The notes below the pieces were generated by a model. The model was not told the DNA's origin and searched no databases. It saw only the letters and a program-made list of their open reading frames with translations. From Leucoraja erinacea (Eukaryota): a stretch of 64,000 nucleotides of DNA. The position numbers and the translations under genes are program-made. Shown in pieces: positions 3,241 through 64,000 of this stretch. The DNA lies in contig NW_026576597.1 in NCBI RefSeq assembly GCF_028641065.1, positions 496,001 through 560,000 of the forward strand, in the 5' to 3' direction. Within the stretch, counting starts at the first letter, position 1. Each line of letters begins with the position of its first letter.

Positions 3241-4519
3241 TTTGTTTATTAATTTGTTGTCACATATGCTGAGGTGCAGTGAAAAGCTTTTTTATTTTGT
3301 GCTGTCTAATCAAAGGAAATACTATACATGATTACAATCGACATATACATGATAAAGGAAATAGCGTTTAGTGCAACATAAAGTCCAGTAAAGTCCGAAT
3401 GAAGATCTCTGGTGAGATAGATGGGTCTCTGAGGTAGAAAGGTCTCTGATGCGGTAGACAGCGGCAGATAGCAGATATATGTAGAATGTATTGACTAATA
3501 TGGACTGTAAATGTTTGTATTGTGTTTCCTGTTTATATGTTTAATAATTAGATTTGAAATAAAATAAATGTGTGTGCAGACAGGCCAAACTCAATGATTT
3601 AGTCTCAAGGGGCTACAGATGCTGATTTCCAAATAAAGACACAATGTGCTGGAGTAATTCAGTGGGTCAGTCAGCATTTGTGGAGAACGTGGATAGGAGA
3701 TGTTTTTGGGACCGGACAATTCTTCAAGCTGATAGTAGGAGGGTGAAGACAACTGGAAGAGAGGTAGGGGCAGGACAAAGCTTGGCAATTGATAGTTGGT
3801 GCAGACAAAATATGTACGAAGGAAGTTCAGATGCTGGTCTACACTGAAGATAGACAAAAAATGCTGGAATAACTCAGCGGCTCAGTCATCTCTGGAGAAA
3901 AGGAACAGGTGACGTCTCGGCTTGTTTGTCTGCTGAATTACTTTTCTCCAGCGATGCTGTCTGACCCGCTGAGTTACCCTAGCATTTTGTGTCTGTCTGA
4001 TTGGTAGGTGAATACAGGTGAGGGTTATTTTGATTGTCAGGTGGTTGGACAAAGGCAAGAGACAAGAATACAAAAAGTCTGAGAAGAATATAAGGGTAGA
4101 AGAGGCATGAAATGTGAAGCCAGAGGAAAGAACAAAAGTGGGCCAAACTCAACAATATTAGACTGACATTGACCCACTTTAGCCGGCAACTGATGACGAC
4201 TCTCTGTTCCCTCGTCTCACTGGGTGAGGGTGGGAATAGGGCGGAGTCAATGTTGTGCAAATCAGTAGATTGTTTTGTTCGAACAAATACGGAACTGCAG
4301 ATGCCTGTTTACCAAAGAAAGATACACAGGGCTGGAGTAACGCAGTGGGTCAGGCTGCATCCGTGGAGAACGTGGACATGTGATGTTTCGGGTCGGGATC
4401 GTTCTCCAGACTGATTACGGGGGCGGGGGGGGGGGGGGGGGGGGGGGGGGGGAGGGGGAAGGAAGCTGGAGTTGAATTATTTTGTTAAACCAGTTTCTAA
4501 CAGGGTTGAACCTCATCCT

Positions 4520-5490: not shown

Positions 5491-6245
5491 GCCACATCTC
5501 ATTGAGTTATCTCATTATTCCAATCTAGCGAACTCCATTAATGTTCACAGTGTGGTCTATTCTATAGTGGACAAGACAAACAGATTGGTAAATGGCTTGG
5601 CAGAAAACCTGTGTTTAGTCCTTGGATTTTGAGCTCCGTGTTGCTTGTTGCTTCAATTCCCCACCCCACCCTGACCGTTCTGTCTGTGTGTGTCTACACT
5701 GTTACAGCCAGGCCCAACACACGCATCAATGCCTCATCTTCTGTCTGGGCAATTACAGACTTCTGGACTCAATATTGAATTCTTCCACTTGAGGTATCTC
5801 ATTCTTTACTTCTGTGATTCTGGCTGTGTGTTTCTCTCTCCATTAATGTTGACTGACATCAGGTCAGTAAAGTGTTCATGAGCCTGAGACCCGTGAGCTC
5901 CAGGTTCAAGAGCACCTTCTGCGTAACAATAATCAGGCTCTTGAACCACACTGCACAACACTGACCACAATTAACCATTCTTGACTCTCCTGAAACTGTT
6001 TATTTCTCTATAGATGCTGTCCGACCTGTTGAACAAACACATTGAACCTGGTTCTCGCTCACAACTCAGCGACTGGAGAGGGAAGTGAATCTAAACGCGT
6101 AAACTATTCAGTTCAACGCCAGTCAACAAATATCTTCTCCTCGAATCATCTCGACTGACAGCAGCGCCTCCTCTCGCCACAATCCTGCCTCCATGCGGCA
6201 AGTTCAAGGCTTGGTGAAATTTAGAGCAAGTTTGTGTGTAGTTCA

Positions 6246-6289
6246 CCTGGAAACTGCTGTCGCGTACGAATCCCAGCTGGTGATTGGCT
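6246..6289 (+). promoter_or_regulatory. MHC class II promoter X1/X2-Y module
   Basis: CCTGGAAACTGCTG (6246-6259) resembles mammalian X1 CCTAGCAACAGATG. GTGATTGGCT (6280-6289) is a Y box (inverted CCAAT). The spacer is 20 bp, the canonical X-Y distance, about 160 bp upstream of the ATG. No clear S box was found. Confidence 0.85.
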
Positions 6290-6451: not shown

Positions 6452-6515
6452 ATGGGAGCTGTTTACTTGTCTATGTTAGCGATGGCTATAATATGCGGAG
6501 CCCGGGCTGGAGACT
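6452..6515 (+). CDS. DAA: MHC class II alpha chain, exon 1 (signal peptide MGAVYLSMLAMAIICGARAGD)
   Basis: Strong Kozak context aacATGG, hydrophobic leader, and GTAAGT donor at 6516. Phase 1 joins exon 2 in frame (T+AC=Tyr). Confidence 0.88.
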
Positions 6516-15604: not shown

Positions 15605-15853
15605 ACCAACACGACAATCTCCAGGTCTACTTGGTCCAGGACGGCAGCCCCGACAAGCAGTTTGACATGTTGGTGGATGACGATGAGGTTTTCTACATGG
15701 ACTTCAAGCTGAAGAAGGAGGTGGCGCGGATCCCCGCGTTCCAGCACCTCGCGATGCAGGGAGGAGAGGCGGCGATCTCGTCTAACATCGCCGTCGCTAA
15801 ACAGAATTTAAATGTTTGGAAGAACCTGTCGCACTGGAGCCCGGAGCCCAAAG
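15605..15853 (+). CDS. DAA: MHC class II alpha chain, exon 2 (alpha1 peptide-binding domain)
   Basis: acacag acceptor, GTGAGC donor, 249 nt. Encodes YQHDNLQVYLVQDGSPDKQFDMLVDDDEVFYMDFKLKKEVARIPAFQHLAMQGGEAAISSNIAVAKQNLNVWKNLSHWSPEPK, with the DxDExFYxD motif, N62/N69 equivalents and an NLS sequon. Confidence 0.95.
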
Positions 15854-16267: not shown

Positions 16268-18166
16268 AGGTGTAGGTGAGGGGAAGTGGGTGTAGGTGAG
16301 GTGAGGGGAAGTGGGTGTAGGCGAGGGGAAGTGGGTGTAGGCGAGGGGCAGTGGGTGTAGGCGAGGGGCAGTGGGTGTAGGCGAGGGGCAGTGGGTGTAG
16401 GCGAGGGGAAGTGGGTGTAGGCGAGGGGCAGTGGGTGTAGGCGAGGGGAAGTGGGTGTAGGCGAGGGGAAGTGGGTGTAGGTGAGGGGGAGTGGGTGTAG
16501 GTGTGGTGAGGGGAAGTGGGTGTAGGCGAGGGGCAGTGGGTGTAGGCGAGGGGCAGTGGGTGTAGGCGAGGGGAAGTGGGTGGTAGGCGAGGGGAAGTGG
16601 GTGTAGGCGAGGGGCAGTGGGTGTAGGCGAGGGGCAGTGGGTGTAGGCGAGGGGCAGTGGGTGTAGGCGAGGGGCAGTGGGTGTAGGCGAGGGGCAGTGG
16701 GTGTAGGCGAGGGGAAGTGGGTGTAGGCGAGGGGCAGTGGGTGTAGGCGAGGGGCAGTGGGTGTAGGCGAGGGGCAGTGGGTGTAGGCGAGGGGCAGTGG
16801 GTGTAGGCGAGGGGCAGTGGGTGTAGGCGAGGGGAAGTGGGTGTAGGCGAGGGGCAGTGGGTGTAGGTGAGGTGAGGGGGAAGTGGGGTAGGCGAGGGGA
16901 AGTGGGTGTAGGCGAGGGGCAGTGGGTGTAGGCGAGGGGCAGTGGGTGTAGGCGAGGGGCAGTGGGTGTAGGCGAGGGGCAGTGGGTGTAGGCGAGGGGC
17001 AGTGGGTGTAGGCGAGGGGCAGTGGGTGTAGGCGAGGGGCAGTGGGTGTAGGCGAGGGGTGCAGTGGGTGTAGGCGAGGGGCGGGGTGTAGGCGAGGGGC
17101 AGTGGGTGTAGGCGAGGGGCAGTGGGTGTAGGCGAGGGGCAGTGGGTGTAGGCGAGGGGCAGTGGGTGTAGGCGAGGGGCAGTGGGTGTAGGCGAGGGGG
17201 CAGTGGGTGTAGGCGAGGGGCAGTGGGTGTAGGCGAGGGGCAGTGGGTGTAGGCGAGGGGCAGTGGGTTGTAGGCGAGGGGCAGTGGGTGTAGGCGAGGG
17301 GCAGTGGGTGTAGGCGAGGGGCAGTGGGTGTAGGCGAGGGGCAGTGGGGGTGTAGGCGAGGGGCAGTGGGTGTAGGCGAGGGGCAGTGGGTGTAGGCGAG
17401 GGGCAGTGGGTGTAGGCGAGGGGCAGTGGGTGTAGGCGAGGGGCAGTGGGTGTAGGCGAGGGGCAGTGGGTGTAGGCGAGGGGCAGTGGGTGTAGGCGAG
17501 GGGCAGTGGGTGTAGGCGAGGGGCAGTGGGTGTAGGCGAGGGGCAGTGGGTGTAGGCGAGGGGCAGTGGGTGTAGGCGAGGGGCAGTGGGTGTAGGCGAG
17601 GGGCAGTGGGTGTAGGCGAGGGGCAGTGGGTGTAGGCGAGGGGCAGGTGGGTGTAGGCGAGGGGGCAGTGGGTGTAGGCGAGGGGCAGTGGGTGTAGGCG
17701 AGGGGCAGTGGGTGTAGGCGAGGGGCAGTGGGTGTAGGCGAGGGGCAGTGGGTGTAGGCGAGGGGCAGTGGGTGTAGGCGAGGGGCAGTGGGTGTAGGCG
17801 AGGGGCAGTGGGTGTAGGGCGAGGGGCAGTGGGTGTAGGCGAGGGGCAGTGGGTGTAGGCGAGGGGCAGTGGGTGTAGGCGAGGGAGGCAGTGGGTGTAG
17901 GCGAGGGGCAGTGGGTGTAGGCGAGGGGCAGTGGGTGTAGGCGAGGGGCAGTGGGTGTAGGCGAGGGGCAGTGGGTGTAGGCGAGGGGCAGTGGGTGTAG
18001 GCGAGGGGCAGTGGGTGTAGGCGAGGGGCAGTGGGTGTAGGCGAGGGGCAGTGGGTGTAGGCGAGGGGCAGTGGGTGTAGGTGAGGGGCAGTGAGTGTAG
18101 GTGAGGGGCAGTGGGTGTAGGTGAGGGGAGGGGAAGTGAGCGTAGGTGAGGTGAGGGGAAGTGGGT
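16268..18166 (+). repeat. 20-bp G-rich minisatellite (GGCGAGGGGCAGTGGGTGTA)n, ~95 copies
   Basis: Directly visible, highly homogeneous tandem array in intron 2. Confidence 0.98.
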
Positions 18167-27439: not shown

Positions 27440-27721
27440 TGCCCCCTCAGGCTGCCATGTACCCCGAGGATCCCGTGGAGTGGGGTAAGCCCAACACCTT
27501 GATCTGTCTGGCTGACGGATTCGCACCTCCGCGCATCAACATGAAGTGGAAACGGAACGATGAGCCTGTGAGCAAGGGAATCAACACCACGGAGTATTAC
27601 ATAAAGAGAGATTACACCTTCCAGAGGTTCACCTACCTGAGCTTCGTCCCGAGCCCGGGAGACATGTACTCCTGCCACGTGGAGCACGAGGGTCTGGAGA
27701 GGCCAACCACTGTCTTCTGGG
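27440..27721 (+). CDS. DAA: MHC class II alpha chain, exon 3 (alpha2 C1-set Ig domain)
   Basis: cccacag acceptor, GTCAGT donor, 282 nt (the canonical size). Encodes VPPQAAMYPEDPVEWGKPNTLIC...WKRN...FTYLSFVPSPGDMYSCHVEHEGLERPTTVFW. Confidence 0.97.
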
Positions 27722-28659
27722 GTCAGTATGGACCAGGTTAACGGGGCTGATCTCTATGCGGGGTTGGGACTGGTTGGTGGTAGGTCCCGCATTCACCTGG
27801 TCCAGTAGCAAGGTCTCAGCTTTCTGTTCCAGCTACAAGTAGGTGGAGTGCTGGGTACCACCATGTACCGTGGGGTTCAAGACCAGTGAATGTGTCCTGC
27901 TCGCGGAGTGAGGGTTGCTGGTGCTGTCTAACCAGGGTGGGCGATTGTAAAACCAGTCTAGACGCTGACAAATGGCAAATAGAGCTGTCATTGTCCATGT
28001 TGTCCACACAGTAATGAGGAGAGCACTGTGTCTCTGCCATGATTGGATTCCCAGTCAGTAATGAAACAGGCTTGGTTGTCAGAAACCACAGATGAGGACG
28101 AGGCTCACATTCCCGGCCATATCCTGGGGCAATGTTCAGGACCTATTCTGACTGCACGTTGTGGATGTTCTGATTAGATTGTTCCCCGGGCAGTTGTCCA
28201 TCTTGAGTGTCTCCAGACCATTTCAGTCCTGGGATTTTAGTGTATTCTGACAGAGTGCCCACAATAATGAATCTTTCCTGCTGGGAGATTTACTCTGAGC
28301 TGCTGCAAATTGGGATACGGCATCCAACACAGCAAAGTCTTCACTGGTAATGCACATTCAGTGATTGAGCTAAATCAGTGAGTTTACATCATTGATACTC
28401 TTTCTCCTTACAACTAAAGGGCGATCGCACTCTCCAATTAGTCTGTTAACTAATCTAATAATAATAATAATAATATATTTTATTGTCATTGCACGTAAGT
28501 GCAACAAGATTTAGTATGCAGCTCCACGATGTACAAGAAAAGTAAAATAAATAAATAAGCAAGCTGAGTGACTTGACCATCCGAGGGAGACTGTCCAGCG
28601 GGGGTGGGTGGGGGGGGGGGGGGGCACTCAGCAGGGCCGGATCTCACCCCGGATTCTAT

Positions 28660-35927: not shown

Positions 35928-36073
35928 AGCCCGAGGTACCTGAGGAAGTGTCCGGCCCTGGAACTGTGATCTGTGCTCTGGGAATCACTCTGGGAATCAT
36001 CAGCGCCGTGGTGGGAGTCATCTTACTGATCAAAGAGAGGCAGCGGCTGCAGGCTCAGCAGCAGGGCATCTAA
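35928..36073 (+). CDS. DAA: MHC class II alpha chain, exon 4 (connecting peptide, TM, cytoplasmic tail, stop)
   Basis: ctccccag acceptor. Encodes EPEVPEEVSGPGTVICALGITLGIISAVVGVILLIKERQRLQAQQQGI* with the CxxGxxxG class II alpha TM motif. A GTGAGT donor lies 2 nt after the stop. Spliced CDS is 64+249+282+146=741 nt. Confidence 0.95.
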
Positions 36074-49750: not shown

Positions 49751-50576
49751 AACCTCTACTGGCAGCTTGTTCCATATACACCATCCTCTGTGTGAAAATA
49801 GTTCCTCCTTGGATCCTCTCAGAATCCCCTCCTATAACTCTGCCAACAGTAAGGTTAGACTCACTGTCAGTGGTTCCCTGATGTGTCTTACTTAAATAAC
49901 GGTACTATATTCACTGCTGTCCAGTGGTGTGGTACCTCACCCCTGGATAAAAGATTATAAATATCCCTAAAGGACACAAAGTGCTGGAGTAACTCAACGT
50001 CACTGGAGAGCAGATAGATGACATTTCGAGTCTGAACCCTTCTTCAGACTGACAGGGGGGGAGCAGGGGGAGAGGAAGGGTCTCGACCCCAAACTATCCA
50101 TGTTCTCCAGGAATTCTACCATTGAGTTACTCTAGCACTTTGTGTCCTTTTGTGTATTAACCAGCATCTGCAGTTCTTTTTGTTCCAAACCTTCCCACAA
50201 TGTCTGAGATACACTTGTCAGGCCCCAGGGATTTACGTGCCTCAAGACTCCTTTGTAAGGTGGATGCATTTCAGGACATCACGATTCTCATGACTGAATT
50301 GCCTCATTTCCATGACGTTCATCATCTTCAAATGCAGAGAATTACACAGATTCATTACCTTTTTGGAGAAGAGTCACTCTTCACTCTTTTAAATGGCCAA
50401 ACTCTTTGTCTGAGAAGGTTCTTCCTGGATCCTAGATTCCTCAACAGGAGAAAAATATCTCATTGTGTGGAAGAACTTAAAACATTTTTAGTGAGTCCTC
50501 CCATCATCCTACGAACCACTGGAGGATATAGTCCCAGTTTACTGAGTCACTCTTCAGACCAACCCATCATTCGGTT

Positions 50577-53500
50577 CACCGTGTCTCCCTGTCCCAGACT
50601 AACCCATCATCCATGGATGACGGATTAGTCCCCGTCTCCATGTCCCCCCCTGTCCTCACTTCACCATGTCCTCCTGTCCCCACATCACTGCGTCCCCACG
50701 TGACTCCCTGTCCTCACGTAACTTTGCTCCGCTGTCGCCATGTAAGCGTGTCCCCCTGTCTCCCTGTCCCCACTTCACCATTTCCCCCGTCCCCACGTCA
50801 CCGTCTCCTGTCCCGATTTCACCGTGTCCCCCTGTCCCCACATCACTGTGTCCTCACTTCACCATGTCCTCCTGTCCCCACATCACTGTGTCCCCACATC
50901 ACCGTGTCCCCCTGTCCCCACATCACCGTGTCCCCCTGTCCCCACATCACCGTGTCCCCCTGTCCCCACATCACCGTGTCCCCCTGTCCCCACATCACTG
51001 TGTCCCCACATCACCGTGTCCCCCTGTCCCCCACATCACCGTGTCCCCCTGTCCCCACATCACCGTGTGTCCCCCTGTCCCCACATCACCGTGTCCCCCT
51101 GTCCCCACATCACTGTGTCCCCCTGTCCCCACATCACCGTGTCCCCACATCACTGTGTCCCCCTGTCCCCACATCACTGTGTCCCCCTGTCCCCACATCA
51201 CCGTGTCCCCACATCACTGTGTCCCCCCTGTCCCCCACATCACTGTGTCCCCCTGTCCCCACATCACCGTGTCCCCCTGTCCCCACATCACCGTGTCCCC
51301 ACATCACCGTGTCCCCCTGTCCCCACATCACTGTGTCCCCACATCACTGTGTCCCCCTGTCCCCACATCACCGTGTCCCCCTGTCCCCACATCACCGTGT
51401 CCCCCTGTCCCCACATCACTGTGTCCCCCTGTCCCCACATCACCGTGTCCCCCTGTCCCCACATCACCGTGTCCCCCTGTCCCCACATCACCGTGTCCCC
51501 ACATCACTGTGTCCCCCTGTCCCCACATCACTGTGTCCCCCTGTCCCCACATCACCGTGTCCCCCCTGTCCCCACATCACCGTGTCCCCACATCACCGTG
51601 TCCCCCTGTCCCCACATCACTGTGTCCCCACATCACTGTGTCCCCACATCACCGTGTCCCCCTGTCCCCACATCACTGTGTCCCCACATCACTGTGTCCC
51701 CCTGTCCCCACATCACCGTGTCCCCCTGTCCCCCCATCACCGTGTCCCCCTGTCCCCACATCACTGTGTCCCCCTGTCCCCACATCACCGTGTCCCCCTG
51801 TCCCCACATCACCGTGTCCCCCTGTCCCCACATCACCGTGTCCCCACATCACCGTGTCCCCCTGTCCCCACATCACTGTGTCCCCACATCACCGTGTCCC
51901 CACATCACCGTGTCCCCCTGTCCCCACATCACCGTGTCCCCCTGTCCCCACATCACCGTGTCCCCCTGTCCCCACATCACCGTGTCCCCCTGTCCCCACA
52001 TCACCGTGTCCCCCTGTCCCCACATCACCGTGTCCCCCTGTCCCCACATCACCGTGTCCCCCTGTCCCCACATCACCGTGTCCCCACATCACCGTGTCCC
52101 CCCACATCACCCGTGTCCCCCCTGTCCCCCACATCACTGTGTCCCCCTGTCCCCACATCACCCCTGTCCCCCTGTCCCCACATCACCGTGTCCCCCTGTC
52201 CCCACATCACCCTGTCCCCCTGTCCCCACATCACCGTGTCCCCCTGTCCCCACATCACCGTGTCCCCCTGTCCCCACATCACTGTGTCCCCCTGTCCCCA
52301 CATCACTGTGTCCCCCTGTCCCCACATCACCGTGTCCCCCTGTTCCCCCATCACCGTGTCCCCACATCACCGTGTCCCCACATCACCGTGTCCCCACATC
52401 ACCCTGTCCCCCCTGTCCCCACATCACCGTGTCCCCCCCTGTCCCCACATCACCGTGTCCCCCCTGTCCCCACATCACCGTGTCCCCCTGTCCCCACATC
52501 ACTGTGTCCCCCTGTCCCCACATCACCGTGTCCCCACATCACCGTGTCCCCCTGTCCCCACATCACCGTGTCCCCTGTCCCCACATCACCGTGTCCCCAC
52601 ATCACCGTGTCCCCCTGTCCCCACATCACCGTGTCCCCCTGTCCCCACATCACCGTGTCCCCACATCACCGTGTCCCCCTGTCCCCCCACATCACCGTGT
52701 CCCCCTGTCCCCAACATCACTGTGTCCCCCTGTCCCCACATCACCGTGTCCCCACATCACTGTGTCCCCCTGTCCCCACATCACCGTGTCCCCCTGTCCC
52801 CACATCACTGTGTCCCCCTGTCCCCACATCACCCTGTCCCCCTGTCCCCACATCACCGTGTCCCCCTGTCCCCACATCACCGTGTCCCCACATCACCGTG
52901 TCCCCACATCACCCTGTCCCCCTGTCCCCACATCACCGTGTCCCCACATCACCGTGTCCCCCTGTCCCCACATCACCGTGTCCCCACATCACCGTGTCCC
53001 CCCTGTCCCCACATCACCGTGTCCCCCTGTCCCCACATCACCGTGTCCCCCTGTCCCCACATCACTGTGTCCCCCTGTCCCCACATCACCCTGTCCCCCT
53101 GTCCCCACATCACCGTGTCCCCCTGTCCCCACATCACTGTGTCCCCCTGTCCCCACATCACCGTGTCCCCACATCACTGTGTCCCCCTGTCCCCACATCA
53201 CCGTGTCCCCACATCACTGTGTCCCCCTTGTCCCCACATCACCGTGTCCCCCTGTCCCCACATCACTGTGTCCCCCTGTCCCCACATCACCGTGTCCCCC
53301 TGTCCCCACATCACCGTGTCCCCACATCACCGTGTCCCCCTGTCCCCACATCACTGTGTCCCCCTGTCCCCACATCACCCTGTCCCCCTGTCCCCACATC
53401 ACCGTGTCCCCACATCACCGTGTCCCCACATCACCGTGTCCCCCTGTCCCCACATCACCGTGTCCCCACATCACCGTGTCCCCCTGTCCCCACACATCAC

Positions 53501-55215
53501 CGTGTCCCCCTGTCCCACACATCACCGTGTCCCCACATCACTGTGTCCCCCTGTCCCCACATCACCGTGTCCCCCCTGTCCCCACATCACTGTGTCCCCC
53601 TGTCCCCACATCACCGTGTCCCCACATCACCGTGTCCCCACATCACCCTGTCCCCCTGTCCCCACATCACCCTGTCCCCCTGTCCCCACATCACCGTGTC
53701 CCCCCTGTCCCCACATCACCGTGTCCCCACATCACCGTGTCCCCCTGTCCCCACATCACCGTGTCCCCACATCACCGTGTCCCCCTGTCCCCACATCACC
53801 GTGTCCCCTGTCCCCACATCACCGTGTCCCCCCTGTCCCCACATCACCGTGTCCCCACATCACCGTGTCCCCCTGTCCCCACATCACTGTGTCCCCCTGT
53901 CCCCACATCACCCTGTCCCCCTGTCCCCACATCACCCTGTCCCCCTGTCCCCACATCACCGTGTCCCCACATCACCGTGTCCCCACATCACCCTGTCCCC
54001 CTGTCCCCACATCACCGTGTCCCCACATCACCGTGTCCCCTGTCCCCACATCACCCTGTCCCCCTGTCCCCACATCACCCTGTCCCCCCTGTCCCCACAT
54101 CACTGTGTCCCCCTGTCCCCACATCACCGTGTCCCCCTGTCCCCACATCACCGTGTCCCCACATCACCGTGTCCCCCTGTCCCCACATCACCGTGTCCCC
54201 ACATCACTGTGTCCCCCTGTCCCCCACATCACCGTGTCCCCCTGTCCCCACATCACCGTGTCCCCCTGTCCCCACATCACCGTGTCCCCCTGTCCCCACA
54301 TCACTGTGTCCCCACATCACCGTGTCCCCCTGTCCCCACATCACCGTGTCCCTCCTGTCCCCACATCACTGTGTCCCCACATCACCGTGTCCCCACATCA
54401 CTGTGTCCCCCTGTCCCCACATCACCGTGTCCCCCTGTCCCCACATCCCCCCTGTCCCCACATCACCGTGTCCCCACATCACCGTGTCCCCCTGTCCCCA
54501 CATCACCCTGTCCCCCTGTCCCCACATCACCGTGTCCCCACATCACCGTGTCCCCACATCACCGTGTCCCCCTGTCCCAACATCACTGTGTCCCCACATC
54601 ACCGTGTCCCCCTGTCCCCACATCACCGTGTCCCCACATCACCGTGTCCCCACATCACCGTGTCCCCCTGTCCCCACATCACTGTGTCCCCACATCACCG
54701 TGTCCCCCTGTCCCCACATCACCGTGTCCCCCTGTCCCCACATCACCCGTGTCCCCACATCACCGTGTCCCCCTGTCCCACACATCCCCGTGTCCCCCTG
54801 TCCCCACATCACCGTGTCCCCCACATCACCGTGTCCCCCTGTCCCCACATCACCGTGTCCCCTGTCCCCACATCACCGTGTCCCCACATCACCGTGTCCC
54901 CCTGTCACATCATCACCGTGTCCCCTGTCCCCACATCACCGTCCCCACATCACCGTGTCCCCCTGTCCCCACATCACCGTGTCCCCCTGTCCCCACATCA
55001 CTGTGTCCCCACATCACCGTGTCCCCCTGTCCCCACATCACCGTGTCCCCACATCACCGTGTCCCCACATCACCGTGTCCCCACATCACCGTGTCCCCAC
55101 ATCACCGTGTCCCCACATCACCGTGTCCCCACATCACCCTGTCCCCCTGTCCCCACATCACCGTGTCCCCACATCACCGTGTCCCCCTGTCATCATGTCC
55201 CCCTGTCACTGTGTC
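50577..55215 (+). repeat. Composite minisatellite of 24-bp (ACATCACCGTGTCCCCCTGTCCCC) and 16-bp (ACATCACCGTGTCCCC) units
   Basis: Directly visible ~4.6-kb array with degenerate edges. Confidence 0.98.
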
Positions 55216-55461
55216 CTCACTTCACCTTCACCAATCGAAACATCAGACATGAGGACACTGGGTGACATCCACGTGCCCGTGTCACCATCACCATGTCACC
55301 TTCACTTTCACCAGACATCAGACGGAGGGACACAGTGGACATCCACGTGCCCGTCCAGACCATACCAAACTCGTCCAGACAAACATATCCAGACGAAGCC
55401 AAATCTGTCCAGTCCTAACTAGCCTGACCCGCCGAGTTCCTCAAGCATCTTATCTCATTTA

Positions 55462-55990
55462 TTGGGATGTAATGCTGATGCCCTTTAAGGCGCAGGTGGC
55501 CGCATACTGATCAAATACGGGGCCCATATCTGAGGAAGGATGTGCTGGCTCTGGAGAGGTTTACAAGAATTATTCCAGTAATGAGTGAGTTAGCATATGA
55601 TGAGCGTTTGACAGCACGGTGCCTCTACTCGCTGGAGTTTAGAAGGTTGAGGGGGGACCTCATTGAAACTGACATAATAATGAAAGGCATAACTAGAGTG
55701 GATGTGGAGAGGATATTTCCACTGGTGGGTGAGTCTAGGACCAGAGCTCTGAGCCTCAGAATTAAAGGGCGTTTCTTCAGAAAGGAGGTGAGGAGAAACT
55801 TCTTTAGTCAGCAAGTAGTTAATCTGTGAAATATTTAAGGCAGGGATAGACAGATTATTGATTAGAACGGGTCTCAAGGGTTCTGGGGAGAAGGCAGGAA
55901 ATTGGATTAGGAGGCAGAGATCAGCCAATGATTGAATGACGGAGTGGACTCGATGGGCCGAATGGTCTAACTCTACTCCTATCATTTGTG
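55462..55990 (+). mobile_element. CR1 3' end abutting the second promoter
   Basis: LYSLEFRRLRGDLIET...FFSQQVVNL and the CR1 3' UTR. Confidence 0.88.
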
Positions 55991-56006
55991 AACCTGCCCA
56001 CCACCG

Positions 56007-56122
56007 CCCGGCTGTGATTGGCCCCTCTCTACCCAGCTGTGATTGGCCCACCTCTGCCCAGCTGTGATTGGCCCCTCTCTACCCGGCTGTGATTGGTTTG
56101 TGCTGCTGGGTCGGTATATAAA
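56007..56122 (+). promoter_or_regulatory. Promoter of second gene: four CCAAT/Y boxes in a 25-bp tandem repeat plus TATA box
   Basis: ATTGG at 56017, 56042, 56067 and 56092. TATATAAA at 56115-56122. CpG-rich sequence follows. Confidence 0.75.
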
Positions 56123-56198
56123 GCGGGTGTGGTCTTGTCGCTGCTGTTTAGCTCCAGGCTGTGGGATCTTTACTTTAGTTGGTGCCCAGTGAGCGGTG

Positions 56199-56295
56199 AT
56201 GAAGGACGGCGCCGCCCAGCTCCGCTCCCTGTGGCTCAGGGTTGCGCTCTTGTTCTGCTCCCTGCTGCTCCCTGGACAGCACGATGTTGGAGTCG
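56199..56295 (+). CDS. First coding exon (signal peptide) of an unidentified secreted or membrane protein; MHC class II beta is one candidate
   Basis: MKDGAAQLRSLWLRVALLFCSLLLPGQHDVGV plus 1 nt (97 nt, phase 1) with a GTGAGT donor at 56296. It begins ~77 bp after TATA. No later exon was recognised in the window. Confidence 0.6.
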
Positions 56296-56749
56296 GTGAG
56301 TAGCGACTGTAACTTCTGTGATGGATCTGTCCCGATCTGGCATCTTGCCGGGTCTCAGCGCTCACTCGCGGCTCCGAGTGTTTCCGCGGCCACGGAGCTG
56401 GTAGTGGAAGGACACGGGTGATGTAGGGATGCTGTCCACACTAGTAATGGAAGTGGGACAAGTGTCTCCAATTTGCCTCTGATCTTGGGCACCATCTCCC
56501 TGCACGATTCCGTATTCCTTGTTTTCTCGCTGCCCTGAAACACACCGTTCTCGTTTTGCATTGTCGCGACTTCCGCAACCGTCCTGAGTACCTCTAACCA
56601 AGTTCAATAACCTCTAAGTGAAGAATTCCGCGGGAAATTTTCATTTTACTCCCGTTATTACCTCTTTAATATTTGGTAATTGTAATAATTGTAATAACGG
56701 CGCAATAATGGCAGACAGTGAAGAAAGCTCCTAATTGGACATCCTTGCT

Positions 56750-58172
56750 GTTCAGGCAGTGCACCTTAGGTTCATGAGGTTAATCCCTGGGATTTCGGGA
56801 CTGTCATATGAGGAGAGATTGGAAAGACTTGGCTGTATTCACTGGAGTTTAAAAGGATGAGGGGGATCTTATAGAAACGATTAAAATTATAAAAGGACTG
56901 GACAAGCTAGATGCACGAAACATGTTCCCAATGTTGGGCGAGTCCAGAACCAGGGGCCACAGTCTTAGAATAAAGAGGAGGCCATTTAAGACTGAGGTGA
57001 GAAAAAACTTTTTCAACCAGAGAGTTGTGAATTTATGGAATTCCCTGCCACAGAGGGCAGTGGAGGCCAAATCACTGGATGGATTTAAGAGAGTGATAGA
57101 TAGAGCTCTAGGGGCTAGTGGAGTCAAGGGATATGGGGAGAAGGCAGGCACGGGTTATTGATTATGGATGATCAGCCAATGAATGGCAGTGCTGACTCGA
57201 AGGGCCGAATGGCCAACTCCACCTATTTTCTATGTAACTCTTAAACCATCCCGAGACACGCCCCTGTCATCCAGCCGGTCTTGCTCCGTAACATTTTTTT
57301 ACGTTTTAATGTCAATTCTACCATTGTTCAGATGCATCAGGCTAATTAGTTGGTTGTCAGTTTGTTAAACATTAGTATCACATTTGCTGTCCCAACTCAG
57401 AACCTATGATATTTTGGGGGATGACAATGAGTGTATCCATATTCTACATCCACCCTTTAAAACACAAGGGCAGAATATGGGTCCTTGGCATATGTACCTC
57501 GCAGCATGTGTGATGTGAGGTGTGTTACTTTTTGTAAGAAGGCTTCGTCTGAATGAGAATGTAGCGCTGAGATGAAGTTGGGATGTAATGTTATAATTGT
57601 ACAAGGCATTGGTGAGGCCAAATCTGGAGTATGGTGTACAATTTTGGTCGCCTAATTATAGGAAGGATGTCAACAAAATAGAGAGAGTACAGAGGAGATT
57701 TATTAGAATGTTGCCTGGGTTTCAGCAACTAAGTTACAGAGAAAGGTTGAACAAGTTAGGGCTTTATTCTTTGGAGCGCAGAAGGTTAAGGGGGGACTTG
57801 ATAGAGGTCTTTAAAATGATGAGAGGGATAGACAGAGTTGACGTGGAAAAGCTTTTCCCACTGAGAGTAGGGAAGATTCAAACAAGGGAACATGACTTGA
57901 GAATTAAGGGACTGAAGTTTCGGGGTAACATGAGGGGGAACTTCTTTACTCAGAGAGTGGTGGCTGTGTGGAATGAGCTTCCAGTGAAGGTGGTGGAGGC
58001 AGGTTCGTTTTTATCATTTAAAAATAAATTGGATAGTTATATGGACGGGAAGGAAATGGAGGGTTATGGTCTGAGCGCAGGTATATGGGACTAGGGGAGA
58101 TTATGTGTTTGGCACGGACTAGAAGGGTCGAGATGGCCTGTTTCCGTGCTGTAATTGTTATATGGTTATATG
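56750..58172 (+). mobile_element. Two CR1 3' ends of different subfamilies (56750-57235; 57570-58172)
   Basis: ORFs 56922-57161 and 57597-58094. Confidence 0.9.
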
Positions 58173-58354
58173 AAGAGGGATAGGGATGTCCTGTGCAAAA
58201 GTTGTCACAAGCAATTTTTTGGGTACAACATTTAATTAGGAAATCTACACTTGCTCATTACTGAGGAAATTGAATACAAATGTAGGCAGGTTGTCCTCGT
58301 GATATTTGTCTTGGACAGTCTGTTGGTGTTAAGATAGACACAACATGCTGGAGC

Positions 58355-61010
58355 AAGCTTCTCCTGTGGGGCCTGGGCCTCACAGAGTGGAGGAAGCCCA
58401 GGACAAAAAGGTCAGTGTGGGAATGGGAGTTAAAGTGTTTAGCAACTGGGAGTTCGCGTAGGCCTAGGCAGACTGAGCGGAGGTGTTCAGTGAAAGAATC
58501 GCCGAGCCTGCGCTTGGTCTCGCCAGTATATAGGAGTCCACACCTGGAACAGCGGATATAGTAGATGAGGTTGCAGGAGATGCAGTGAACCTCCGCCTCA
58601 CCTGAAAGTTCTGTTGGGGTCATTAAACTGAGTCGAGGGGGAGGTAAAGGGTCAGGTGTTGCATCTCCTGCAGTTGCAGGGGAAAGTACCTGGGGAGGGG
58701 ATGGTTTGGGTGGGATGTGATGAGTTAACCAGGGAGTGGTGGAGGGAACGGTCTCTACGGAAAGGGGGTGATGATGGGAAGATGCGGCTAGTGATGGGAT
58801 CCCATTGGAGGTGGTGACAATATCGGAGGATTATGTGCTGTATGCAACAGCTGATGGGGTGAAAGGTGAAGACTAGCGGGAGGGGGAGCAAGGGCGGAGC
58901 TGTGGGGTACTGAGGAGATTTGCATGAGGGCCTCACTCATAATGGAAGAGGGGGGACCCCCGTTCCCATAAGAACGAGAACATCTGGGATGTCGTGGTAT
59001 GGAACACGTTGTTTTGGGGAAGATGTAGTGTAGATGGAGGAATCGAGAGTGGGGGATAGTCTTTTCAAGAGGCAGGATGGGAAGAAGTGTAGTCCAGATA
59101 GATGTCAGTCGATAGTCTGTCTTCAAATTCCTGGGCGTGCACATCTCTGAAGATCTTTCCTGGTCCGAGAACACTAATGCCATTATCAAGAAAGCTCATC
59201 AGCGCCTCTACTTCCTGAGAAGATTACGGAGAGTCGGTTTGTCAAGGAAGACTCTCTCTAACTTCTACAGGTGCACAGTAGAGAGCATGCGGACCGGTTG
59301 CATCATGGCTTGGTTCGGTAACTTGAGCGCCCTGGAGAGGAAAAGACTACAAAAAGTAGTAAACACTGCCCAGTCCATCATCGGCTCTGACCTTCATTCC
59401 ATCGAGGGGATCTATCGCAGTCGCTGCCTCAAAAAGGCTGGCAGTATCATCAAAGACCCACACCATCCTGGCAACACACTCATCTCCCTGCTACCTTCAG
59501 GTAGATGGTACAGGAGCCTGAAGACTGCAACGTCCAGGTTCAGGAATAGCTACTTCCCCACAGCCATCAGGCTATTAAACCTGGCTCAGACAAAACTCTG
59601 AACATTAATAACCCATTATCCGTTATTTGTACTTGATCAGTTCATTTATTCATGTGTGTATATATTTATATCATGGTATATGGACACACTGATCTGTTCT
59701 GTATTCATGCCTGCTATGTTCTGTGTGTTGAAGCAAAGTAAGAATTTCATTGTCCTATCAGGGACACATGACAATAAACTCACTTGAACTTGAACGTGAT
59801 GGAGACGGTGAGATCCAGAAACGGATGGTCCAAGTGAATTTGAGTGCAGGAGGTAGCCCCGATACAGTCGTCAATGTAACGGAGATGGAGGTTGGGGATA
59901 AGGCCAGTGTACACCTGGAACAGGGATTGTTCAACATACCCTACAAGAAGGCAGGCTTAGCTGGGGCCCATGTGAGTGCCCATAGCTACACCTTGGATTT
60001 GGAGGAAATGGGAGGAGTGAAAGTTGTTGAGAGTAAGGACCAGCTTCGCTAGGCGGAGGAGAGTGGAGGGATATTGGTTAGTTCTGTGGTCGAGGAAGAA
60101 ATGAAGGGCTTTAAGGCCTTCCTGGTGGGAGATGTAGAGTGACTGAACATCCACAGTGACGATGAGGGAGTGGGGGGGGCTGGAAAATGGATGTCATTGA
60201 AGCAACAAAGGGGATTTGAGGTGTCTTGGACATGAGTCGGGGGGGGGGGGGGGGATTTAAGATGGAGTTGAGATATGTGGAAATGAATTCAGTGGGACAG
60301 GAGCAGGCAGGAACAATGGGTACGCAAGGCCAGTTGTGTTTATGGGTTTTGGGGAGGAGGTTAAACAGGGCCGTGCGGGGCTGGGAAATGACAAGGTTGG
60401 AGGCTGCAGAGGGCAGACGGCCAAAAGTAATAAAATCAGAAATACTCCAGTTATGGGTTGTTGGTCGTCTGTGGTCCAAGGGCAAGTCGAGTGTCTGAGA
60501 GCTGGTGTCTGGTGTCACTAGAGAGGTCAGCTCACCAGTCTATCACGGCACCTCCCATGACAGTAGGTTTGATATAATGTTGGGGTTGATGCAGAGTGAG
60601 CGGAGGCCTGTACGTTCAGATGGGGGAGAGGTTGGAGTAGGTGAGGTGAGTGAACAAGTTGATGTCACACCAATAGTTACAACTAAAGATCTAAAGAGGG
60701 TAGACGGCTGCCTGGGAGAGTGTAGAGTAGTGGGACCCGTGGGGAAGGAGTCATCACTGAGTGGTGAGGACTCCTTCCTGTAGAGTGAGGAGTAGAGGTA
60801 ATGGAAGAAAAGCTCTGTCCTGGGGCAGAACATTGATGTGGGGCAGAGGGGAGCGAAGGTGAGGCCTCTGAGGACAGACTGGCATGGTCCAGCTGCGGGT
60901 GGTTGAGTCATGGAGTGTTCGTGGGGGGGACCAGTCTGGAGGCAGGCAAAGCTAGTGCTCCTTAGTGGAGTCTGTGGTGAGGAACTGGTTGTTGAAGGAT
61001 TGGACCTGGC
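58355..61010 (-). mobile_element. Penelope-like element (RT plus GIY-YIG remnants) split by a Rex1 insertion
   Basis: LPKTHK...PIV, DVQSLY, GVAMGTHMGPS and LLYTGETKRRLGD motifs. Confidence 0.85.
59120..59793 (+). mobile_element. Rex1/Babar-like LINE 3' end
   Basis: KFLGVHISEDLSW...KKAHQRLYFLRRLR...DPHHPG...SYFPTAIRLLN and a (CTTGAA)n tail. Confidence 0.88.
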
Positions 61011-63167
61011 GTAGAATGTTGTGAGAGGCATAGATAGTAGACATTCAGAATTTATCCCCAGGGTGGACATGTCCAACAATAGAGAGTTAAGGTGAGAGGA
61101 AGAAAGTTTTATGGAGATGTGCAAGGCAAGTTTTTGTTGAATGGTAGTGGAGGCCTGGAGCACGTTGCCAGTGGTGGTGGTGAGGACAGACACGATGGTG
61201 GTGACAACAGATACAATGGTGACATTTAGGAGGCTTTTGGATGGACACATGGAAGTGCAGAGGATAGAGGGATATGGATCATGTGCAGGCAGATACGATC
61301 TGTTTATGTTTAGGGCAAACATTGTGGGCTGAAGGGCCATTCATGTGCAGTACTGTCCTAGACTAAACTGAAATGGTTATGTGGCCTTTTAAAGCTGAGC
61401 TTGACCTGCTGGAATTCAAGTTAACAGTGGATTGAATCAAGTTCCAGATGGATGAGGAGGATAGTTTCTCTGTTGGGAGAATCCAGACCGCTGTTTAACA
61501 TAGCTCGGGCAATTTATTTAATTGTTATTTATTACTCTGGTCATGTGAGCACAGTGTTGGAACAAATGAGTAGATTATTTGAAGAGCAAGTGTGTGAAAG
61601 GTTAGCCAGACTAGAGGGAAATATTGAACTAGGGTTAGTTGGATCAACTATTGTCTTGTTATTGACAGAGGGGCTGAGTGGCCTAATTTGCATATTTTTC
61701 CCTTCACTCTCCCTGCAAGTAAATGCTAAATCACCCAATGTCCTTCTCTTCTGGAGTGAGCCAGTCGGTTCCATTCATTGAATTGAATAATCAAATACAT
61801 TTGATTCACCAAGTATGTACACATACAAGGAATTTGCCTTGGTGCTTTGCTCACAAGTAACATTGGCTTTTCCACTGCTGTTTTCCTTGTTTATCTGACT
61901 ATTTTGGAAGGCACATGCAGCTGGCATTCATTGCTTTCAGGCAAGAAATTCCAGATTGTAACTGTTTGATCACTAAATCTGTGACCCCTGGAGCTGGTTT
62001 CCCAAACAGGAATAATCATAACTTGGTATCCAACAGAGTTATAACACGAGTTATAACACCTTAACTCTTAAACACGAGTTAAGTTCTTATAACACCTTAA
62101 AGAACTCTTAAACACGAGTTATAACTCCTCTTGCCTCCCCAAACCAAATCACCAATGGGAGGAGAAGCCATTCAGATTTCAGGGCATGCATGGTGCCATC
62201 CACTGCTAGTTAGTTGTAAATTGGTTGTTGGTTTATCTTGAGTAACCACTGATTGTCACAATGTGTGTAACCGGAACATGTCAAATGTCTATACAATGGT
62301 TTGTGCTTCCTTTACAGCCCCAACAATGTCCCACCATGTCTGTTAGAAATGTTGCCAGGTTATAATTTGAATCTCTTGGTTGTGATCGGTGTCACAGGAT
62401 CCATCTAATGTTGACACTTCCAGTTTGCCCTTGGCTCATGGCTGCAGCAGAGAAACAGCTGTATTGTCCCATTAAACCTGTACCAGGCAGCAGCCACTTA
62501 TTTGCATTGATTCCACTTTTTAATTCTTTCCATATCCTCAAACTTCCAGAAGCTTCTACCCCTTACCCACACACTATGGGGCAGCTTGCAGCAGCCATGG
62601 GTGGAAATCCTGGGAGGGGGGGGAAAGCGAGCAGGCCCATGCTTTGAGAGGTGTGTGACAATAATCCCCATGTTTTGAAATCTGGACCTTTATCAGACTG
62701 GCAGTTCACTTACGGTTGGTGGGCTGGCAGTGCAGTCACTCACGCCTTGTACGCTGGCAGTTCACTCACTCACCCCTACTTCCTTCACCCCCCCCTTGCC
62801 ATTACCTTCCCCCTCCTCCCCCGCACGCATTCAGTCCATCTCCCCACAACCTCCCCCATGCACTCTTAGTGGCTCCCACAGAGCAGCCATTCCTGCCTAA
62901 TAGGTTCCCATAGTGATGAAGAACACGCAGATATGAAAAGTGGAAAAAGGATTTATTAAAGTTTAAAATGTGGATGACTCTTAAAATATGAGAACAATTT
63001 ACATGTTAAAGATGCGAATTATTAAGTTTTTTCTCGTTGTGTCTCATGTTGCTGTTCATTGCATCTTTGTCTCTGCTGTTGATAAAAATATATAATTTAA
63101 GTATAGAGAGATTGAGCGGTCAAATTTTATCAAAGAAAATCTGAGAATTTAACTCGGAAGTCATCAT

Positions 63168-63580
63168 TCAACAAAGCACGCTTTTAATGACAACATTCTT
63201 GGTCGATGTTCCATTCTTCAGGAAAACGTTGACATTTCCCTTCATCTTTCCTCAGCTAAGAGCCACATACAGTTGTACATGCTGAAATACCAGTTTGTCG
63301 CGGTAGATCAACACCTTCTGCATTGTTTGTCCATGTACTTTATGGATCGTCATAGCAAAACTTGATTGAATGGGGAATTGTGTCTGCTGAAGGGGAATGT
63401 CTTCACCTGCTGTTAAATTGAGTGCACACACATCTCTCTGCTCAGCATTCAGCAGAGACCCATTCTCCTCAACAAATTACTGTTCAGTTCTATCGTATTG
63501 CAATCCCTGCAGCAAATCTAGATTGTCATCATCAAGGTGCATCCTTCCATTTCTTGGTTGTGGCAAATTAAAGAATTCTG
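63168..63580 (-). pseudogene. Helitron RepHel PIF1-type helicase remnant
   Basis: QFPIQSSFAMTIHKVHGQTMQKVLIY...VFQHVQLYVALS*...TKNVVIKSVL, plus an upstream LNAEQR. Internally deleted. Confidence 0.85.
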
Positions 63581-63584
63581 TTGT

Positions 63585-64000
63585 TGTAATTTTGGTTCCG
63601 TCTTCACTAAGGAAGACATAAATAATCTGCTGGAAATAACAGGGGACCGGGGGTCAAAGGAGTTGGAGGAACTGAGTGAAATCCAGGTTAGCCGGGAAGT
63701 GGTGTTGGGTAAATTGAATGGATTAAAGGCCGATAAATCCCCAGGGCCAGATAGGCTGCATCCCAGAGTACTTAAGGAAGTAGCCCCAGAAATAGTGGAT
63801 GCATTAGTGATAATTTTTCAAAACTCTTTAGATTCTGGAGTAGTTCCTGAGGATTGGAGGGTAGCTAATGTAACCACACTTTTTAAAAAGGGAGGGAGAG
63901 AGAAAACGGGGAATTACAGACCAGTTAGTCTAACATCGGTAGTGGGGAAACTGCTAGAGTCGGTTATTAAAGATGGGATAGCAGCACATTTGGAAAGTGG
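63585..64000 (+). mobile_element. CR1 ORF2 fragment running off the window
   Basis: KSPGPDRLHPRVLKE...VPEDWRVANVTTLFKKG...NYRPVSLTS. Confidence 0.92.

Follow-up and report, generated by a model that had tools for sequence, protein, structure and literature searches.

Background

Among the closest described counterparts of the promoter analysed here are those of the mammalian MHC class II genes, in which a W/S-X1-X2-Y module is bound by RFX, CREB, NF-Y and CIITA (PMC7866136, PMC2278383). The order W/S-X-X2-Y is fixed in class II promoters (PMC7866136), the distance between X and Y is 20-22 bp (PMC4374748), and recruitment of CIITA in mammals strictly needs RFX at the promoter-near X box (PMC2278383). 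Human class II genes are TATA-less, the choice of their start site being ascribed to nucleosome eviction by the enhanceosome, and mammals are also described as having a distal enhancer, S'-Y', to which RFX and CIITA bind (PMC2677874). Human RFX5, together with NF-Y, also occupies double CCAAT boxes that are spaced at 24-28 bp, have GC or E boxes in the interval and lack the RFX motif (PMC4889920).

In elasmobranchs, the class II genes and their linkage have been described (PMC8010645, PMC10751288, PMC9992475), and conserved promoter elements are mentioned for teleosts (PMC6523485). The word "promoter" is absent from the main texts of PMC8010645, PMC10751288, PMC9992475 and PMC4219347. In the literature searched, we found no description of an X-less elasmobranch class II beta promoter, or of elasmobranch class II promoters at all, which does not establish their absence from print.

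Identity of the gene

The window is a stretch of 64,000 bases, positions 496001-560000 of contig C1416 in a skate genome assembly of 2.19 Gb; coordinates are those of the window unless given as contig positions. Towards its end lies the first exon of a gene with the following parts:

56145-56198 (start approximate), plus strand: 5' UTR of exon 1, from a transcript contig that begins at 56145 and a read depth that climbs from about 56130
56199-56295, plus strand: coding part of exon 1, the 32-residue signal peptide of MHC class II beta, from reading frame, RNA reads and protein matches
56296-64000, running on to the contig end, plus strand: intron 1, repeat-rich, in which no exon 2 was found

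The ATG at 56199 is followed, after 32 codons and one base, by a GT donor at 56296, which places the junction in phase 1. The use of this donor is visible in sequencing runs that are 95-99% alike to the window and represent other alleles or close species, not the sequenced individual. In run X21, which is RNA-seq on record and of which about 6% was read, 23 of the 33 raw reads placed on the window have a loose end at 56296, and the transcript-like contigs from runs X1 and X6, taken as RNA by guess only, break at the same base. Beyond it, the loose ends continue in frame as three variants of one decapeptide in three runs, and these variants match, by alignment, the beta-1 N-termini of proteins P0001, P0024 and P0025. 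The gene is thus transcribed and spliced in the RNA of relatives. The X6 contig carries 19 unrelated letters before position 56175, beside a possible acceptor AG at 56177-56178; these letters have no match in the window and may represent an upstream exon or an artefact.

Searching the 32-residue peptide against 1.84 billion sequences returned three proteins at E <= 0.001. The best match and sole credible one was P0001 (273 aa), 91% identical over residues 1-32; the other two were repeats. Five further sequences are 94-100% identical to the signal peptide and variable in beta-1. Overall, six close sequences are 91-100% identical to the window peptide and differ among themselves in beta-1, as expected from alleles of a classical gene. 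P0001 consists of a beta-1 domain, a C1-set beta-2 domain, a transmembrane segment and a short tail, and is closest to class II beta; this architecture is that of P0001, 91% identical in exon 1, rather than of this assembly's own exons. Among the 33 homologs of P0001 listed, all named elasmobranch proteins are class II beta, and HLA-DR and DQ beta chains lead its PDB matches. Of the named relatives, a skate sequence is closest, with 63% identity in the signal peptide and 73% to P0001.

Exon 1 is single-copy in the genome, with reading frame and donor intact, and the class II alpha gene lies upstream of it on the same strand. We conclude that the gene codes for a classical, polymorphic MHC class II beta chain and that 56199-56295 is its signal exon. 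It shares with the beta genes of Rhinoraja, Heterodontus, Scyliorhinus and Chiloscyllium the signal exon, the phase-1 intron and the polymorphic start of beta-1, and its position in tandem behind alpha, with a class I-like gene on the same contig, is likewise that of elasmobranch class II (PMC8010645, PMC10751288, PMC9992475). The partner class II beta gene had been one identity offered by the original prediction, with RNA mapping as the check. Reads splicing from 56296 into beta-1, together with P0001, its named homologs and the PDB matches, bear this identity out, and they rule out a non-MHC gene with an ordinary multi-CCAAT promoter. A W-category or class I identity was also rejected, the other C1-set exons of the genome being only 25-47% identical to P0001. 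C1-set exons on C984 and C604, unlinked to C1416, presumably belong to W-category MHC alpha and beta genes.

The downstream part of the gene is absent from the assembly: neither exon 2 nor any other beta exon was found in the window, in the last 7 kb of the contig (which ends 6,988 bases past the window) or in the rest of the assembly. A search for exon 2 with Pfam PF00969 was blank and uninformative, since this family also misses P0001 and the other elasmobranch beta chains listed. G/C-skewed minisatellites occupy 50532-55210, upstream of beta (24/40-bp units, 4.4 kb), and 16269-18128, in an alpha intron (20-bp units, 92 copies); C1416 breaks in sequence of this type, and its end is low-complexity.

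Four Y boxes and a TATA box

The promoter in front of this exon contains two elements:

55997-56096, plus strand: array of four 25-bp units (a doubled 50-mer), each ending in GTGATTGG (Y box, inverted CCAAT), from motif layout and TRF
56115-56122, plus strand: consensus TATA box TATATAAA, with TATATAA at 56115, about 30 bases before the RNA 5' end

The four ATTGG motifs start at 56017, 56042, 56067 and 56092. Their exact 25-bp period, the TATATAA and the phase-1 signal exon all agree with the layout initially read from the sequence. TRF describes the array both as 56007-56096 with period 25 (3.6 copies, 87% matches) and as 55996-56096 with period 50 (2.0 copies, 92%). The units are identical to one another at 19-24 of 25 positions, and are pairwise alike (22/25 for units 1 and 3, 24/25 for units 2 and 4), so the four boxes go back to one tandem duplication and do not count as independent sites. 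Units 2 and 3 contain CAGCTG, which we take to be an E-box, and unit 1 contains CCGCCC, which we take to be a GC box.

The repeat unit had been thought to match nearly the Y-box context of the alpha promoter. This holds for units 2 and 3, the only ones with CCCAGCTG, and not for units 1 and 4, which have CCCGGCTG. Within 470,988 bases of the contig, the alpha 17-mer (6272-6288) recurs within one edit only at 56032 and 56057. The general sequence optimum of NF-Y accounts for part of this likeness between beta and alpha.

With its start at 56145, the contig from run X1 begins 30 bases downstream of the first T in the TATA box, a distance that fits the use of this box without proving it. The sequence around the beta start is unique from 55997 to 56735; as this island begins at 55997, the working proximal promoter probably measures about 150 bp. 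Antisense-oriented RNA reads were seen over the array (56070-56135, run X21), at a depth of about two, too few to call a divergent transcript. A search for an orthologous promoter gave 0 matches in metagenome contigs.

Pairs of TGATTGG at a 25-bp period occur 206 times genome-wide, against 167 for a control pattern, and the first 100 pairs listed include tandem arrays on C6, C7, C9, C10 and C13, indicating that such arrays arise at other genome sites too. These other arrays lie at C6:12006695, C7:6951364, C9:69542918, C10:12451242 and C13:51642483. Meanwhile, the beta promoter array is the only regular 25-bp array in 471 kb of C1416. Its most probable origin is the tandem duplication of one part, spacer plus Y, of an MHC-type module. 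Short tandem duplications in the proximal promoter are also known from cetacean class II genes, where, in the promoters described, S, X and Y stay in place and Y is not multiplied (PMC6155461).

A DNA run of organism B covers 56042-56508. Its 55-letter contig over 56042-56096 has a depth of 66.6, against 20.9 for the adjoining 477-letter contig, and we infer from this 3.2-fold ratio a collapsed array in a relative. These data bear on whether the array and the missing X box could stem from a mis-assembled or orphan copy, that is, an assembly artefact or a dead duplicate exon. The absence of downstream exons from the assembly and the low-complexity end of the contig would be in line with such an origin. 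We consider it extremely improbable, given the single-copy exon with its intact frame and donor, the spliced reads 95-99% alike to it, and the coverage of the array, collapsed at 3.2x, by the organism B run.

Absence of an X box at beta

The comparison with the upstream part of the locus involves three further features:

6452-36070, plus strand: class II alpha gene, with exon 1 at 6452-6515, alpha-1 at about 15607-15852, alpha-2 at about 27441-27722 and the TM/tail exon at 35951-36070
6240-6289, plus strand: X1-X2-20 bp-Y module of the alpha promoter, a candidate shared element, from the consensus and our own X model
4176-4199, plus strand: X1-X2 site that lacks a Y box and lies 2.1 kb upstream of the alpha X box

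A first scan employed an X1 consensus. At the 20-bp spacing, it matched the alpha promoter at 11 of 14 positions, the top score among the 135 CCAAT sites of the window, and the four beta boxes at 7-8 of 14 at best. We then built an X model from the genome itself, using four distal modules of C1416 (described below) and leaving alpha out. Over 540,920 positions, this model placed the site at 4176 (22.8 bits, rank 5) and alpha (21.8 bits, rank 6) directly after the four modules themselves, with all other positions at 14.5 bits or less; the beta positions scored between -1.4 and 0.9 bits. The agreement of the own-genome model makes the absence of X independent of the mammalian consensus. From the 3' end of alpha to the end of the contig, the unique island 55997-56735 included, the model found no X site above background. 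The beta proximal promoter is therefore without an X box, and its Y box is present in four copies; the original prediction was right that none lies 20 bp upstream of the first Y, as both the 7-8/14 matches and the scores of at most 0.9 bits attest.

Compared with the mammalian module, the beta gene thus keeps a Y box with MHC-type context upstream of the start and lacks X1 and X2, with four Y boxes at 25 bp and a consensus TATA box where human class II genes are TATA-less (PMC2677874). Meanwhile, the skate alpha promoter and the four distal modules retain X-X2-20 bp-Y. The array also resembles the promoters with double or multiple CCAAT boxes at 24-28 bp, in its 25-bp spacing and in the E-box and GC box between (PMC4889920); it differs from them in having been made by tandem duplication, and in standing before a class II gene, a class usually restricted to certain cell types.

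This likeness raises the idea that RFX and CIITA are held through protein contacts on the 25-bp NF-Y array itself, neither an X box nor distal modules being needed. It would be consistent with RFX5 residing without its own motif on double CCAAT boxes 24-28 bp apart (PMC4889920), as the beta array offers such a spacing along with two E-boxes and one GC box. We regard this local tethering as decidedly unlikely: what PMC4889920 describes is occupancy by RFX5 and not CIITA-dependent activation, and known CIITA targets carry an X box (PMC2278383).

The LINE next to the array

Immediately upstream of the array lies a transposable element:

55466-55996, plus strand: LINE, 5'-truncated and decayed, from dispersed copies, an ORF2 remnant and the 3' tail

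We take this element to be CR1-like, judging by the ORF2 remnant and the tail rather than by a match in a repeat library. Its copies are dispersed and 5'-truncated, with the C-terminus of the reverse transcriptase and a short tandem 3' tail; scoring covered 40 of 9,629 candidates, and the 39 copies other than this one show 74-83% identity. Upstream, the unique sequence is bounded by the LINE, the last base of whose 3' tail directly precedes unit 1. The tail covers the expected place of X1 (about 55980-55993), the junction with the array lying within 3 bases of the expected X1 end; the place further upstream where an S box would lie is LINE sequence as well. The organism B run is without coverage of 55970-56041, so this junction is described from the present assembly alone.

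Such a position suggests a history in which an ancestral X box of this lineage was destroyed or pushed aside by the insertion of the LINE, with a compensatory expansion of the Y array afterwards. Besides the tail ending at 55996, within 3 bases of the expected X1 end, this history is favoured by the apparent age of the array units (19-24 of 25 identical), which does not exceed that of the LINE (best copies 74-83%). An ATTGG at 55461 that adjoins the 5' end of the LINE in 25-bp register with unit 1 also speaks for it; however, two of its five letters may be LINE. Against an X box hidden behind the element, the own X model found none in the 5' flank at the right distance. That flank is another repeat remnant, scoring -6 bits or less at the expected X spacings, and no target-site duplication beyond 5 bases was found at the LINE. 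LINE 3' cores occur once per 6 kb in the region. Together with the 74-83% identity of the copies, these observations do not support the proposed displacement of the X box by the LINE, which is probably not the cause of the loss; we consider the insertion history very unlikely. It would be compatible with any of the regulatory mechanisms proposed here, and is a separate question from them.

X-Y modules elsewhere in the locus

Scanning 271 kb of the contig with its 631 CCAAT sites revealed four X1-X2-20 bp-Y modules, better than that of alpha, at contig positions 455183, 459641, 464752 and 469630. They lie ahead of the window start by 26-41 kb, of alpha by 33-47 kb and of beta by 82-97 kb. These modules are near-perfect, share the same orientation and are spaced 4.5-5 kb apart (C1416:455140-469640). 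They form two diverged pairs, with 96% identity within the first pair and about 77% between pairs. Between contig positions 416 and 496 kb, 300 ORFs were left after filtering; in the longest 120 of them, all domains detected by Pfam were those of retroelements, so that no host gene was found near the modules by this search, which short exons and non-coding genes could escape. The four modules are a candidate class II locus control region. As X-Y modules upstream of alpha, with no host gene among the ORFs scanned, they resemble the HLA-DRA distal S'-Y' enhancer, or class II locus control region (PMC2677874), the distance of which is matched by the skate X-X2 site 2.1 kb upstream of alpha. The skate differs from HLA-DRA in having four duplicated modules of the same orientation at 33-47 kb, and in that one partner gene has no proximal X.

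Genome-wide, an exact X1X2 pattern occurs 13 times, against 3 for a control: five times on C1416, twice on C1112 and six times elsewhere. Seven of the 13 have ATTGG at the Y position (20 bp), and all of these are in the class II locus or in its collinear copy on C1112. The C1112 copy is 94-99% collinear with the module region, carries three modules and likely represents the second haplotype; the haplotypes may differ in how many modules they have or in how these are spaced.

A class I-like gene on C1416 (C1-set exon at contig 222988-223197) has two stacked X-X2-Y modules upstream, at contig 229674 on the minus strand. In its Y context, the second of these is similar to units 1 and 4 of beta. 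C1416 has two further X-X2-Y-like modules, at contig 192682 and 197698. RFXAP is present in the genome. Searches for the RFX5 C-terminal family and the CD74 trimer family gave no match, and their controls gave none either, which makes these blanks uninformative. Based on the distal modules, the modules of the class I-like gene and RFXAP, the RFX system appears to be in use at this locus.

Outside the locus, an X1-X2 site at C11:23382834 (minus strand) is followed by a CCAAT that faces the other way, and another X-like site lies about 10 kb from it. On C911, about 5 kb from a beta-2-microglobulin-like exon, an X1-X2-like site (17.3 bits) occurs with weak Y-like sequences and an ATG, making it a candidate B2M promoter.

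How beta may be controlled

The original prediction had suggested that beta may have been rewired out of RFX/CIITA control. With four distal modules, the X-X2 site at 4176 and the alpha module in the locus, and with human RFX5 present on double CCAAT boxes that lack its motif (PMC4889920), this is not supported. The combination of X-Y modules elsewhere in the locus and an X-less beta suggests that beta likely borrows CIITA from a distance. Based on these motifs, we postulate that the beta promoter, with its NF-Y sites and TATA box, might act as a landing pad that receives its drive from distal RFX/CIITA modules, a proposal on which our own judgement is evenly divided. NF-Y on the four Y boxes would hold the start open, the 25-bp spacing fitting paired binding of NF-Y, and TBP on the TATA box would set the start site. 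RFX, CREB, NF-Y and CIITA on the distal cluster and the alpha module would then loop to the NF-Y platform of beta, and this looping would switch alpha and beta on together.

Several points weigh against control by the distal modules. CIITA in mammals needs RFX at the promoter-near X (PMC2278383), and there the distal modules supplement the proximal module and do not replace it. The cluster is separated from the distant beta gene by alpha, which may be the only gene that it serves. Moreover, multiple CCAAT boxes with a TATA box are self-sufficient in many ordinary promoters.

The main rival is a CIITA-independent beta, in which the four NF-Y sites and the TATA box drive broad constitutive expression, and surface class II is limited by a CIITA-regulated alpha. 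The lack of an X box in 55997-56735 and from the 3' end of alpha to the contig end, and the consensus TATA box 30 bases before the start, would agree with it, as would the class II transcripts reported in many shark tissues (PMC8010645, PMC9992475). Nevertheless, PMC8010645 puts this broad signal down, without proof, to blood cells that have infiltrated the tissues. In addition, the class II locus is where strong X-Y modules cluster, and the beta Y context is common to the alpha and class I modules. We therefore consider an independent beta unlikely, and retain the distally driven landing pad as our working proposal.

Implications

The feature is real, the gene is ordinary and its promoter is unusual. 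According to reviews, the order and spacing of S, X, X2 and Y are fixed in class II promoters, and CIITA needs RFX at X. The beta gene described here, transcribed and polymorphic, has no proximal X and stands beside an alpha that bears one, which makes it a naturally occurring exception in the oldest lineage to possess adaptive immunity. It raises the questions of whether distal or NF-Y-tethered RFX/CIITA can replace the proximal X box, and whether one chain alone can gate class II output.

We tentatively propose, while thinking it somewhat on the improbable side, that skates, and perhaps elasmobranchs widely, split the control of class II. In such a system RFX and CIITA would switch on alpha only, and beta would depend on an X-less NF-Y minisatellite and a TATA box, being either CIITA-independent or wholly dependent on distal elements. 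If this is true, a fixed proximal S-X-Y in every class II gene would not be a universal rule of jawed vertebrates, and the copy number of the Y box could tune the expression of beta.
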